From Thermodesulfobacteriota bacterium (GTDB lineage Bacteria; DASVDK01): a DNA stretch of 37,202 nucleotides. Below, one piece after another: positions 14,519 to 18,104 of the stretch. The DNA is taken from contig DASVDK010000273.1 of assembly GCA_036381125.1 (NCBI GenBank), positions 1 through 37,202 of the forward strand. The letters run 5' to 3'. The position numbers were made by a program, and so were the translations under genes. The notes under the pieces were generated by a model. That model saw only the letters and a list, made by a program, of their open reading frames with translations. It made no database searches and was not told the origin of the DNA. The first letter of the stretch is position 1. Each line of letters starts with the position of its first letter.

Positions 14519-15151
14519 ATGCAGGAACCGGAGATCCTCGAGATCAACGTCTGGACGCGGGGCGTCGTGATGGACAAGGAGGGGCGCGACGTCACGTTCG
14601 CCCTGGCCCGCGCCGCCCAGGAGGAGGGGAAGTTCGTCCAGGCGTTCGACAACTACGTCGACCAGCCCGACCGGGTGAACGTCCCCATGCGCAAGTACGC
14701 GCGGATCTCCGCCGTGGAGATCGAGGACAAGTACGTCTACGAGAACCACGAGCCGAACATCGTCGTCCTGGTCGAGGAGAGCCTCCTCAAGGGCATGAAC
14801 GTGCTGCGCGGCATGCGCCCCGGCGGCACGCTGATCGTCAACAGCCACCGCCCGATCGCCGACCTCGTCAAGTTCCTGCCGCCGCACGCGCCCGGGACGC
14901 TGCGCAGCTTCGCCGTGATCCACGCGGAGCGCTTCGCCAGGCGCGTCATGGCCGACTTCCTCGGCGCCGAGGGGGCGAGCGTCCGGGGCGGCCTCGGCAG
15001 GGGGATCGCCGGCCCGATCATCGGCGCCACGGCGCGCGTCGGCGGCTTCGTGTCGCTCGACGCGGTCAGGAAGGTCGTGTCCGACCCCGCGGCGGCCGAG
15101 CGCGGGTGGGAGTCGGTCCAGATCCGCGAACTGGGCGCTGCGACCGTCTAG
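14519..15151 (+). CDS. 2-oxoacid:ferredoxin oxidoreductase gamma-type subunit, equivalent to the N-terminal part of the oxalate oxidoreductase delta subunit
   Basis: VWTRGVVMDK..RD, NYVDQPDRV.VP, KYVYEN, VLVEESLLKG and GIAGPIIGA closely follow my recollection of Moorella OOR delta; lacks the GRGGQG loop of CoA-dependent PorC. Confidence 0.85.
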   Translation: MQEPEILEINVWTRGVVMDKEGRDVTFALARAAQEEGKFVQAFDNYVDQPDRVNVPMRKYARISAVEIEDKYVYENHEPNIVVLVEESLLKGMNVLRGMRPGGTLIVNSHRPIADLVKFLPPHAPGTLRSFAVIHAERFARRVMADFLGAEGASVRGGLGRGIAGPIIGATARVGGFVSLDAVRKVVSDPAAAERGWESVQIRELGAATV

Positions 15152-15239
15152 GGCGCGCCGACCGAACCAGGCAGTCCGGCCGGCACGGCCGCGCCGGCTG
15201 CGGAGATGGCACGGTCGGCAGAGCTGTCACGAGGTCACG

Positions 15240-15593
15240 ATGCCGTACGCCTACACGCCGAAGCTCATCCACATCCCGCCCGAGAAGGACGTGCCGTTCG
15301 GCATGATCGTGCCGGCCCCCGAGGTGAGCGGGGAGCAGCCGGGCATGATCACCGGCAACTGGCGGCAGAAGCGGCCGGTGTTCGACCCGATGCGCTGCAC
15401 GCAGTGCCGCTCGTGCGAGATGCTCTGCCCGGACGCCTGCATCTCGATCGACGAGAAGGGGATCGTCGATTCCGACATGAAGTACTGCAAGGGCTGCGGC
15501 GTCTGCGCCTTCGAGTGTCGCGAGGGGGCCATCGTGATGGTCCCAGAACTCGACTTCGAGGACGGCGTCGTCCGTCTGGAGACCGTCTTCTAG
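15240..15593 (+). CDS. 2x[4Fe-4S] ferredoxin-like delta subunit of the oxidoreductase
   Basis: TGNWR..RP, CTQCRSCEMLCPD, YCKGCGVCAFEC, VPELDFED; GAGG RBS. Confidence 0.9.
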   Translation: MPYAYTPKLIHIPPEKDVPFGMIVPAPEVSGEQPGMITGNWRQKRPVFDPMRCTQCRSCEMLCPDACISIDEKGIVDSDMKYCKGCGVCAFECREGAIVMVPELDFEDGVVRLETVF

Positions 15594-15610
15594 GAGCCGG
15601 GAGCACGCCG

Positions 15611-16834
15611 ATGACCATCGCCCTGTCCCAGACCCCGCCGAAGCCGATCGGCAAGGTGCAGCGGATCAACGGCTGCAACGCGGTCGCGCAGGCGGTGAAG
15701 CTCTGCGAGGTGGACGTCGTCGCCTCGTACCCGATCCGCCCGTACACGGGGATCATGACCGAGATCGCCAGGCTCGTGAACAACGGCGAGCTGAAGGCGG
15801 AGTTCCTCATGGGAGGCGGGGAGCACGACCAGCTCTCCATCGCCCTGGGCGCCTCGGCCGCCGGCGCGCGCGCGTTCTGCGGCTCGTCGGGCGTCGGCGT
15901 CACCTTCGCCGGCGAGATGTACGCGCCGATCTCGGGCGGGCGGACGCCGCTGCAGATGGTCGTCGCCAACCGCACGCTCGATCCTCCCGGCGACTTCGGC
16001 TCGGAGCACACCGAGGCGCTCTCGACGCGCGACATGGGCTGGATGCTCGGCTGGGCGTCGCACGCCCAGGAGTGCCTCGACAACACGATCTTCGCCTACC
16101 GGGTCGGCGAGGACCCGCGGGTCCTGCTGCCGCAGATGACCGCGATGGACGGCTACTTCGTGAGCCACATCCAGGGCGACGTCGCCATCCCGCCCATCGA
16201 GGCGGTGCGCGAGTTCCTGCCGCCCTACCGGCACCCGCACCCGCTCGACCCGGCGAAGCCGGTGTCGCACGGCCCGCAGATCCACCCGGAGCGGGGCGCC
16301 GCCATGCAGGTGCAGCGCGCCAACGGCATGGAGATGCTCAAGCTCGCCATCTACGAGCACATCGACGCCTTCAACCGCATCTTCGGCCGGAACTACCACC
16401 CGTTCATCGAGACCTACATGCTCGAGGACGCGGAGATCGTCTACTACGTGCAGGGCGCCTTCGCCGAGACGGCGAAGATCGCCATCCGGAAGCTCCGCAA
16501 GGAGGGGGTCAAGATCGGCCTGCTGCGCCCGCGGTGGATCCGGCCCTTCCCCGAGGAGGACGTGGCCGACGCGCTGCAGAACGCGAAGGTGGTCGGCGTG
16601 GTCGAGACGAACCTCTCGCTCGGCGCGCCCACCAACGGCGGCTGCCTGGCGCTCGACCTCTGCACCGCCCTCTACCACCTCGACCGGCGGCCGCTCCAGC
16701 TCAGCTTCATGGCGGGCATGGGCGGCGAGACGATCACCCCGCAGGAGTTCCTCTGGATGGCGGAGGTGATGGATCGCGTCAAGAAGACCGGTCGGGTGGA
16801 GAAGCGCACCTGGTGGGCCGGGTTCGACCACTAG
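15611..16834 (+). CDS. oorA: Oxalate oxidoreductase-like alpha subunit (PFOR/OFOR family)
   Basis: [11 protein letters not shown] (Arg in place of the PFOR YPITP Thr), [35 protein letters not shown] at 15611. Confidence 0.85.
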
Positions 16835-16839
16835 CGCCA

Positions 16840-17010
16840 TAGCGGGAATGCGCCCCGCGAAGCGGGGCCGGGCCGAAGGCCCGAGTGCCGGCAGGGCGGG
16901 CCGTGGGCGGCACGCCGGCACGGGAGCGGTGAGACGCCCCGCGAAGCGGGGCGCGGGCTTTAGCCCGGAGCGCCGCGACGCCGGTCCGTGGACGGCGCAA
17001 GAAGACAGGA
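16840..17010 (+). repeat. Composite palindromic REP/BIME-like element (family B)
   Basis: Two CGCCCCGCGAAGCGGGG hairpin units; shares TAGCGGGAATGCGCCCC and TAGCCCGGAGCGCCGYGACGCCGGT...GACAGGA blocks with the reverse complement of 30279-30425. Confidence 0.75.
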
Positions 17011-17018
17011 GGCGTTCG

Positions 17019-18104
17019 GTGACCGTCAAGCTCGACGAGATCAGGACCCCGCCGGTCCTCCACGAGGCCCCGCGCAGCGGCGGCGCCATCCGCACCCAGA
17101 CGCTGCCGCTCATCGACAACGTCCGGACGCAGTTCCCGAAGGAGGAGTACGTCGTCTCCGGGCACCGCACCTGTGCGGGCTGCGGGCCCTCGACCGCCTA
17201 TCGCCTGGTGGCGAAGGCGGCAGGCCCCAACACGATCTTCGTCGGCCCGACCGGCTGCATGTACGTGGCCAACACGTCCTACGGCATCAGCCCCTGGGCG
17301 GTGCCCTGGATTCACACGCAGATCGGCAACGGCGGCGGCGTGGCCGGCGGCATCGAGGCCGCCTTCAAGATCCGGGCGAAGAAGGGGCTCTACGACGGGG
17401 AGCTGCCGAACATCATCGTCATGGCGGGCGACGGCGCCGCCTCCGACATCGGGCTCAACTCGCTCTCCGCGGTCATGCACCGCAACCACGACCTCCTCTT
17501 CATCTGCTACGACAACGAGAACTACGCCAACACGAACATCCAGATGTCGCCGACCTCGATGTACGGCGCGTCGACCTCCTTCAGCCCGCCCGGGGACGCC
17601 AAGCCCGAGGGGCGCGACCTCTGGCCGAAGGACCTCGCCGCCATGATCGCCGCCGGGCACCCGAACGTGCCCTACGTGGCGACGGCCGCCATCGGCTACC
17701 CGGTGGACCTCGTCAACAAGGTCCGCAAGGCGCTCAACAAGAAGGGGCCGGCCTTCATCAGCATCGTGGCGACGTGCGACAAGGGCTGGATCGTCGAGCC
17801 GAGCGAGTCGGTCGAGATGACCCGCCTCGCCGTCGAGACCGGCCTCGTGCAGCTCTACGAGGTCGACGAGGGCGTGGAGCGGCTGACGATCACCATCCGC
17901 AAGCGGCGGCCGGTCATCGACTACCTGTCGCGACAGGGGCGCTTCGCCCACCTGCAGCCCGAGCACATCGCCAAGATCCAGCAGTACGCGGACTGGCGGT
18001 GCGCGAGGTGGGGGATCGACGCGCCGATGGTCGAGTCGCGCACCCAGGCCTCGCAGTGGACCCCCAACGCCGAGGTCGCGCGGATCGGCCCGGGCGACGG
18101 TTAG
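17019..18104 (+). CDS. oorB: Oxalate oxidoreductase-like beta subunit (TPP- and [4Fe-4S]-binding)
   Basis: [28 protein letters not shown]...[12 protein letters not shown] motif, ATCDKGW; GTG at 17019 after AGGAGG. Confidence 0.85.

Follow-up and report, generated by a model that had tools for sequence, protein, structure and literature searches.

Do the four adjacent genes at 14519-18104 of a high-GC bacterial contig encode an oxalate:ferredoxin oxidoreductase (OOR, EC 1.2.7.10), and is the division of its gamma and delta domains between two genes a genuine feature of the locus? The window, by which we mean the whole stretch of DNA analyzed here, comprises 37,202 nucleotides of a Thermodesulfobacteriota bacterium (GenBank assembly GCA_036381125.1, contig DASVDK010000273.1) and is the entire contig C273 of genome G000 (4.33 Mb, 382 contigs, 96% complete). 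We put the probability that the four genes represent a true orthologue of OOR at about 0.85, based on homology at the level of profiles, structures, motifs, and trees; from the same comparisons we infer oxalate as the substrate and independence from coenzyme A (CoA). The first-pass annotation had read the locus as a four-gene OOR with gamma and delta unfused, carried by a high-GC diderm, and this proposal is supported by profile scores, structure matches, two trees, active-site motifs, and the gamma N-terminus, together with the GC content of the locus and the Omp85/BamA proteins of the host. The enzyme family is already known and curated profiles exist for it; the window adds one lineage and a minimal gene set rather than a new kind of enzyme.

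Assignment to the Oxalate Oxidoreductase Family

All four proteins find their best profile match among the NCBIfam OOR equivalog models (NF045791, cut-off 500 bits; NF045790, cut-off 230; NF045792, cut-off 590). Alpha (540.9 bits against NF045791) and gamma (242.4 bits against NF045790, model positions 8-207) both pass, and delta alone scores 107.9 bits over positions 227-316 of NF045790 (model cut-off 230). Every model for pyruvate:ferredoxin oxidoreductase (PFOR) or 2-ketoisovalerate:ferredoxin oxidoreductase (VOR) scores far under its own cut-off on the window proteins, with PorA, PorB, and PorC at 313, 308.6, and 59.2 bits versus cut-offs of 550, 405, and 270, respectively. Pfam assigns only the generic domains POR, Fer4, POR_N, PFOR_II, and TPP_enzyme_C to these genes. 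When compared with all solved chains, each subunit favors the OOR of Moorella thermoacetica (PDB 5c4i, chains A, B, and C) over the best PFOR chain: alpha with 461 bits (5c4i_A) versus 203, gamma with 203 bits (5c4i_B) versus 45, delta with 96 bits (5c4i_B) versus 63, and beta with 452 bits (5c4i_C) versus 235. These family matches are homology signals, and chance is therefore not at issue.

The active-site residues agree with this assignment. The first-pass annotation had noted YPIRP instead of YPITP in alpha, together with a switch loop; both are present in the translation, and alignment with Moorella 5c4i_A shows that YPIRP and the ten-residue loop are identical letter for letter. Within this loop, we take Phe117 to have a functional role. 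YPIRP is described as a motif unique to OOR, in which Arg31 stands in place of the Thr of YPITP, and Arg31, Arg109, and Asp116 are the residues by which OOR binds and admits oxalate (PMC5020499). The beta subunit carries a GDGA...NEN thiamine pyrophosphate (TPP) motif and four Cys that align with those of Moorella, and delta contains two CxxCxxCxxxC motifs (eight Cys), as in a two-cluster ferredoxin.

For gamma, the relevant feature is its N-terminus. The glycine-rich GRGGQG loop is the CoA-binding loop, and HGRGGQG is found in 17/17 PFOR-type gammas from the loci fetched for comparison. Alignment against these 17 sequences bears out the earlier observation that the window gamma has WTRGVVMDK at this position, with no glycine-rich loop. 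In the window and in 33/33 OOR-clade gammas, HGRGGQG is replaced by W[AST](R/S/P)GV/I..K with three extra residues, and the fused Moorella-type gammas in the same N-terminal alignment likewise have no HGRGGQG. Domain III of 2-oxoacid:ferredoxin oxidoreductases (OFORs) binds CoA (PMC13768988), and OOR is the single OFOR without a CoA requirement (PMC12337175).

The first-pass annotation also expected automated pipelines to name this enzyme PFOR, which is half right. The names given to JGI homologues are indeed mixed, but NCBI uses the name 'oxalate oxidoreductase subunit alpha' for homologues in metagenome-assembled genomes (MAGs) of Desulfomonilaceae and Actinomycetota, and the alpha and gamma subunits of the window pass the OOR cut-offs, although beta fails.

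Phylogeny of the Alpha Subunit

In each of two trees the window alpha falls inside the OOR clade and apart from the PFORs, with support of 100 (27-row clade, FastTree) and 99 (32-row clade, IQ-TREE); this support applies to membership of the clade and not to position inside it. The FastTree analysis comprised 130 alphas, namely 100 full-length representatives obtained by searching 1.84 billion proteins (restricted to lengths of 360-450 aa), 17 close homologues, 12 sequences from fetched loci, and the window. All 27 OOR-clade rows, which come from several phyla, have the motif Arg (as YPIRP, FPIRP, or YAIRP) and an invariant ten-residue loop. A group of six rows that keeps the motif Arg with a different loop, mostly RALDDPGAFG, joins the OOR clade at a support of 98; the remaining 97 rows, across this branch, are all without the motif Arg, and 89 of them have Thr there. 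The IQ-TREE analysis (quick mode) comprised 38 alphas rooted on four PFOR-type rows, with the frameshifted alphas of loci L102 and L105 left out.

The Gamma/Delta Split

The protein encoded by the gamma open reading frame (ORF) opens with MQEPEILEINVWTRGVVMDKEGRD and ends at a TAG codon (15149-15151), and delta begins at ATG 15240, preceded by GAGG (15231-15234); the stop and the new ribosome-binding site and start reported previously are thus confirmed. The gamma and delta frames differ; that of delta is already open at 14919, an extent that is not surprising given the local GC content.

We conclude that the split is real and not an assembly error, a possibility that the first-pass annotation had raised: other assemblies keep the stop and differ in the spacer. 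The seven closest gamma homologues among those listed, with identities of 78-92%, measure 210-213 aa and were drawn from ENA, Logan, NCBI, and JGI. A Logan contig from the probable source run is identical over 14786-15800 and does not constitute independent data. Two other studies provide contigs that match 14509-15164 with 44 substitutions and 15229-15800 with 20; in these contigs, the 64 spacer bases in between (15165-15228) are swapped for 27 unrelated bases with the flanking coding sequence kept, and none of the differences listed affects the gamma stop codon (48 others lie outside that list). Conserved flanks around a replaced spacer are the pattern expected for a fast-evolving non-coding spacer between conserved genes.

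Distribution of the Unfused Form

The earlier annotation implied that the unfused arrangement is rare, and this did not hold: the unfused, four-gene form is the majority state in the public data, with the Moorella fusion as a derived state. The 120 gamma-domain proteins listed (of 1248 at E <= 1e-20) are all unfused, with lengths of 156-224 aa, in a search whose length range would have included the fused 315-aa form. Among the 401 genomes of the Bacillota-type phylum (the phylum around a Desulfocucumis genome), 30 exceed the cut-off of the OOR delta model; in 17 of these a single frame spans the gamma and delta domains (with an internal TAG in one), in 11 the two domains are matched separately, and in two a full-length match is interrupted by stops, so that 13 of the 30 count as unfused. 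The cut-off is also exceeded in 17 of 251 Methylomirabilota genomes, in none of which (0/17) does an uninterrupted frame span both domains, and the gamma ORFs are 207-222 aa in length. At five Actinomycetota loci, gamma and delta lie ~1.5 kb apart. This distribution is taken from phylum-wise searches; a contig scan using peptide words from the window alpha alone recovered 68 loci, including six of the Arg31 type.

In the IQ-TREE analysis of 38 alphas, ten fused OOR rows form one subclade (support 99) nested beside two unfused Bacillota-type rows, and therefore the four-gene layout is the ancestral as well as the majority state. The Arg31-type sister clade fused independently, and two changes account for the whole fusion pattern.

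Gene Structure

The features of the locus are given in Table 1. The alpha start is placed at ATG 15611, since the alignment of the Moorella chain begins 12 residues past 15611; the start at 15206 in the ORF list is too early. For beta we adopt GTG 17019, and not the 16848 of the ORF list, with AGGAGG at 17007-17012, six bases before the GTG; this start is backed by the N-terminal alignment, and both it and the ribosome-binding site are kept in the same-genus genome G001. No intrinsic terminators are predicted in 13300-19300, and GC is ~0.70 around the locus.

The alpha-beta spacer is 184 nt long, compared with ~90-100 nt in relatives, and contains a repeat resembling repetitive extragenic palindromes or miniature inverted-repeat transposable elements (REP/MITE-like); its CCCCGCGAAGCGGGG hairpin core occurs in 13 copies in the genome, paired at six loci. 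The possibility that G001 lacks OOR was considered and rejected, given that its contig C93 carries beta (96% DNA identity) followed by the Tct genes. This contig begins 29 nt before the beta start, inside the spacer repeat, and G001 seemed to be without the rest of OOR because the assembly breaks at this repeat.

Table 1. Positions of the features of the OOR locus in the window, with strand and the basis of each assignment.
Feature	Position	Strand	Basis
GntR/FCD (FadR-type) transcriptional regulator, likely operon repressor	13523..14341	+	Pfam GntR 69.9 bits, FCD 110.1 bits
Sigma-70-like promoter TTGACA-18-TAGAGT	14435..14464	+	Consensus match only, 10/12 positions
Tandem palindromes TTGGACCAA (14474-14482) and TTGGTCCAA (14490-14498), candidate FadR-type operator	14474..14498	+	Motif count; binding inferred
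OOR gamma subunit (domain III), 210 aa, without GRGGQG loop	14519..15151	+	NF045790 242.4 bits; 5c4i_B 203 bits
Gamma-delta intergenic spacer, 88 nt, GAGG at 15231-15234	15152..15239	.	Sequence
OOR delta subunit, 2x[4Fe-4S] ferredoxin domain (domain V), 117 aa	15240..15593	+	NF045790 107.9 bits; 5c4i_B residues 227-315, 96 bits
OOR alpha subunit (domains I-II), 407 aa, YPIRP and ten-residue switch loop	15611..16834	+	NF045791 540.9 bits; 5c4i_A 461 bits
Alpha-beta spacer with REP/MITE-like repeat, two CCCCGCGAAGCGGGG hairpins	16835..17018	.	Hairpin core repeated in genome
OOR beta subunit (domain VI, TPP and proximal cluster), 361 aa	17019..18104	+	NF045792 475.8 bits; 5c4i_C 452 bits
TctC (19219-20205), TctB (20279-20740), TctA (20744-22264): tripartite tricarboxylate-type transporter	19219..22264	+	Pfam TctC, TctB, and TctA; oxalate as candidate substrate

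Regulator, Transporter, and Neighboring Genes

The OOR genes of the window are preceded by a gene for a GntR/FCD regulator and followed by genes for a tripartite tricarboxylate-type (TTT) transporter. The sigma-70-like site between the regulator gene and gamma is the sole one of its kind in 13300-19300 (shuffled sequences average 0.3), and the tandem palindromes lie directly downstream of its -10 hexamer. The palindrome motif TTGGNCCAA has two matches in the window versus 0.01 expected, and these two are the only ones in the whole 4.33 Mb assembly. Other FadR-type palindromes occur at related loci, with TGGTCnGACCA near the regulator in L103 and L105, and TTGGTATACCAA in L108 and L109.

A GntR/FCD gene accompanies OOR in 8/8 long Methylomirabilota loci and in the Bacillota-type loci L108, L109, and L111. 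Orthologues of the Tct genes (58-64% identity) come right after OOR beta in six of the seven Methylomirabilota loci that have downstream flank, and Tct genes also follow beta in the Actinomycetota locus L020. The order GntR, OOR genes, TctC-(B)-A is common to the window and the Methylomirabilota; this shared layout supports, short of proof, a dedicated regulator and a putative oxalate importer of the TTT family.

Two further kinds of partner were identified at other OOR loci. Immediately upstream of gamma, all 28 Bacillota-type and Methylomirabilota loci (L084-L111, from 25 genomes; e.g., L101:10880-13003 and L110:10423-12624) encode a CDC48-like double AAA+ ATPase of 706-739 aa, in which a CDC48_N domain is combined with two AAA domains; sequences from one phylum share ~50% identity with those from the other. 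If this ATPase, which the window lacks, is needed for OOR function, the window enzyme would differ. In 5/5 Actinomycetota loci (L016-L020; e.g., L016:4013-5905), including one from an Actinomadura in culture, delta forms the C-terminal part of a GltD-like protein with Fer4_20 and pyridine-nucleotide oxidoreductase domains, which suggests that OOR in these bacteria may be NAD(P)-linked; no such oxidoreductase joined to delta is present in the window.

Divergent from the GntR gene of the window is a gene for an iron-sulfur flavoprotein of the FrhB/FpoF family (12221-13393, minus strand), beside a small membrane ORF (11812-12204). F420 coupling of this neighbor was considered and is unlikely, as no match to the F420 ligase CofE was found in the genome. 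None of the other fetched loci has an FrhB-like gene close to OOR, and a functional link to OOR is only a guess.

Between beta and TctC lie ~600 nt (18110-18711) with an ORF for a membrane-like protein of 192 aa (18208-18786) that has no Pfam match. G001 has 13 nt in place of the 18110-18711 stretch, which marks this stretch as an indel, and the ORF may not be a conserved gene. Elsewhere in the window, two ClpX-like AAA+ genes with zinc fingers (790-2202 and 3201-4493) lie ~1 kb apart with an ORF between them, and two genes for proteins with CBS and DUF294 nucleotidyltransferase domains flank a sodium:solute symporter gene (32173-37201, minus strand). Two segments, ~8899-8976 (after an M20 peptidase gene) and 22255-22400 (after TctA), match many G001 contigs at 80-96% identity, which points to further dispersed repeat families.

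Host Genome

The phylum of the host is represented by just two genomes in the collection searched. Two Omp85/BamA matches in G000 exceed the Pfam cut-off, and the assignment of the host as a high-GC diderm is supported. A search for another oxalate route in G000 gave none, with no oxalyl-CoA decarboxylase match over the cut-off (best 240.9 bits versus 739.4), which favors the assignment as OOR. RuBisCO was not found in this genome.

A second OFOR with the Arg motif is encoded in G000 on contig C5 (8589-12105, minus strand). Its gamma and delta are fused into one 404-aa chain, its alpha carries YPIRPYDT, and its beta comprises 348 aa. This enzyme belongs to the sister clade: its alpha is 42% identical to the window alpha and groups with that of Methylomirabilota locus L021.

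Proposed Mechanism and Alternative Readings

By homology to the Moorella enzyme, oxalate would be bound between two Arg of alpha, one from YPIRP and one from the switch loop, and would be attacked by TPP held between alpha and beta. Two CO2 would be released with no need for CoA, and the two electrons would pass from the [4Fe-4S] cluster of beta to the two clusters of the separate delta, and from there to a ferredoxin-type acceptor. Moorella OOR is of the (abc)2 type, with a c subunit that covers domains III to V (PMC5020499). For the window enzyme, the expected assembly is (alpha-beta-gamma-delta)2, equivalent to the Moorella (alpha-gamma/delta-beta)2 minus one peptide link. The FadR-type regulator probably represses the operon via the tandem TTGGNCCAA sites just past the promoter, and TctCBA probably imports the substrate.

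Several observations weigh against assigning the window enzyme as OOR. Beta, at 475.8 bits, is under the NF045792 cut-off of 590, although above its PorB score of 308.6. The window alpha forms its own long branch (0.54) within the OOR clade and is ~54% identical to Moorella-type alphas. No CDC48-like ATPase is encoded in the window, and a tblastn search of the 96%-complete G000 gave single-AAA-domain matches only. G000 has eight heme-copper oxidase matches, an unusual background for an enzyme whose only known source is a strict anaerobe. Lastly, no activity reports for any unfused OOR were found in the literature searched.

Some of these points would also fit an OOR-clade enzyme that acts on another small acid, such as glyoxylate or oxamate. 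Only a single member of the clade has been assayed so far, the window lineage is deep and long-branched, accessory genes present at other OOR loci are lacking here, and the Tct transporter family, as far as Pfam names indicate, carries many carboxylates. Nevertheless, both Arg and the full ten-residue loop are identical to those of Moorella and are invariant in the 27 OOR-clade rows despite their origin in several phyla, and we regard a different substrate as distinctly unlikely. It is highly improbable that the genes encode an ordinary CoA-dependent, four-subunit PFOR or VOR of the porCDAB type: the gamma-delta-alpha-beta order is that of most four-subunit PFOR gene sets (porC-porD-porA-porB) (PMC13768988) and the Pfam domains are equally generic, but the Por models all fall short of their cut-offs, YPIRP replaces YPITP, the HGRGGQG loop is absent, and in the FastTree analysis a branch with a support of 98 divides the window from the 97 rows without the motif Arg.

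A frameshift artefact or a recent pseudogenizing mutation in a fused gene is hardly credible as the origin of the gamma/delta split. A single indel near the end of gamma could join the frames, given the upstream extent of the open delta frame; however, the product would contain a ~35-aa Arg/Pro-rich linker, unlike the ~19-aa linker of Moorella. Moreover, delta has its own GAGG and ATG, its residues 2-16 are conserved among unfused relatives, independent assemblies retain the gamma stop with a different spacer, and unfused loci dominate two phyla.

Starting from the assignment as an unfused OOR, the various elements could be joined into a broader picture, which we consider speculative and rather unlikely as a whole. 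The locus would be a pared-down oxalate module in an oxygen-respiring soil diderm of a two-species phylum, with oxalate imported by a TTT-type binding-protein transporter and the four-subunit OOR as the sole oxalate route (no oxc was found in G000). The enzyme would work without the CDC48-like ATPase found beside OOR in each of the other 25 genomes examined from the Bacillota-type phylum and Methylomirabilota, and the FrhB-family flavoprotein (in a host without F420 synthesis) would be a dedicated low-potential electron outlet.

Implications

In the literature searched, OOR is treated solely as an enzyme of Moorella, a thermophilic acetogen, and a 2021 survey of microbial oxalate degradation in eLife states that OOR was not considered (PMC8062136). 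No description of an unfused OOR, or of a link between OOR and TTT transport, was found among the papers listed. The distribution described above indicates that the OOR family is widespread in soil lineages, with the characterized fused form as the exception, and that OOR often travels with its own regulator and TTT transporter. Oxalate turnover in soil that is independent of frc and oxc thereby becomes testable, and the window nominates a first candidate for an oxalate-specific TTT system.

Comparison with Known Systems

The OOR of M. thermoacetica (PDB 5c4i, 5exd, and 5exe) has the same domain set as the window enzyme, and shares with it YPIRP and the switch loop, the non-glycine N-terminus of gamma, the eight Cys of delta, and the four Cys and TPP motif of beta. 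In Moorella, gamma and delta form one chain of 315 aa, whereas the window has two genes. Among the Moorella-type loci, the subunits of L089 are ~54% (alpha), ~50% (gamma), and ~52% (delta) identical to those of the window, and the beta of L110 is ~61% identical. In place of the Tct genes of the window, L110 and L111, both of the Moorella type, carry a gene for an MFS transporter, and Moorella-type loci include the CDC48-like ATPase, unlike the window, whose host is a diderm with respiratory oxidases.

The four-subunit porCDAB PFORs (e.g., Methanosarcina acetivorans, PDB 9bt4) match the window in gene order and subunit layout, but have YPITP, an NRALSAPINIW-type loop, and HGRGGQG, and their scores on the window proteins are about half those of OOR. 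The Arg31-type sister clade (L021 and the C5 enzyme of G000), which is uncharacterized, has YPIRP-type alphas and no HGRGGQG, and L021 is linked to TctCBA and GntR. However, this clade has Ala at the switch Asp (RALDDPGAFG) and no Asp-Phe pair, its gamma-delta is fused (~404-414 aa), its alphas are 42-44% identical to the window alpha, and it forms a separate clade in both trees (98 in FastTree, 100 in IQ-TREE).

The unfused OOR loci of Methylomirabilota (L092-L107), likewise uncharacterized, resemble the window in that gamma and delta are encoded separately, a GntR/FCD regulator is present, and TctC-(B)-A follows beta, with identities of 47-59% for the OOR subunits and 58-64% for the Tct proteins. 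They differ in the CDC48-like AAA+ ATPase (706-731 aa) encoded between the regulator and gamma, which the window lacks, and, in L103 and L105, in the presence of TGGTCnGACCA at the regulator promoter, where the window has TTGGNCCAA.

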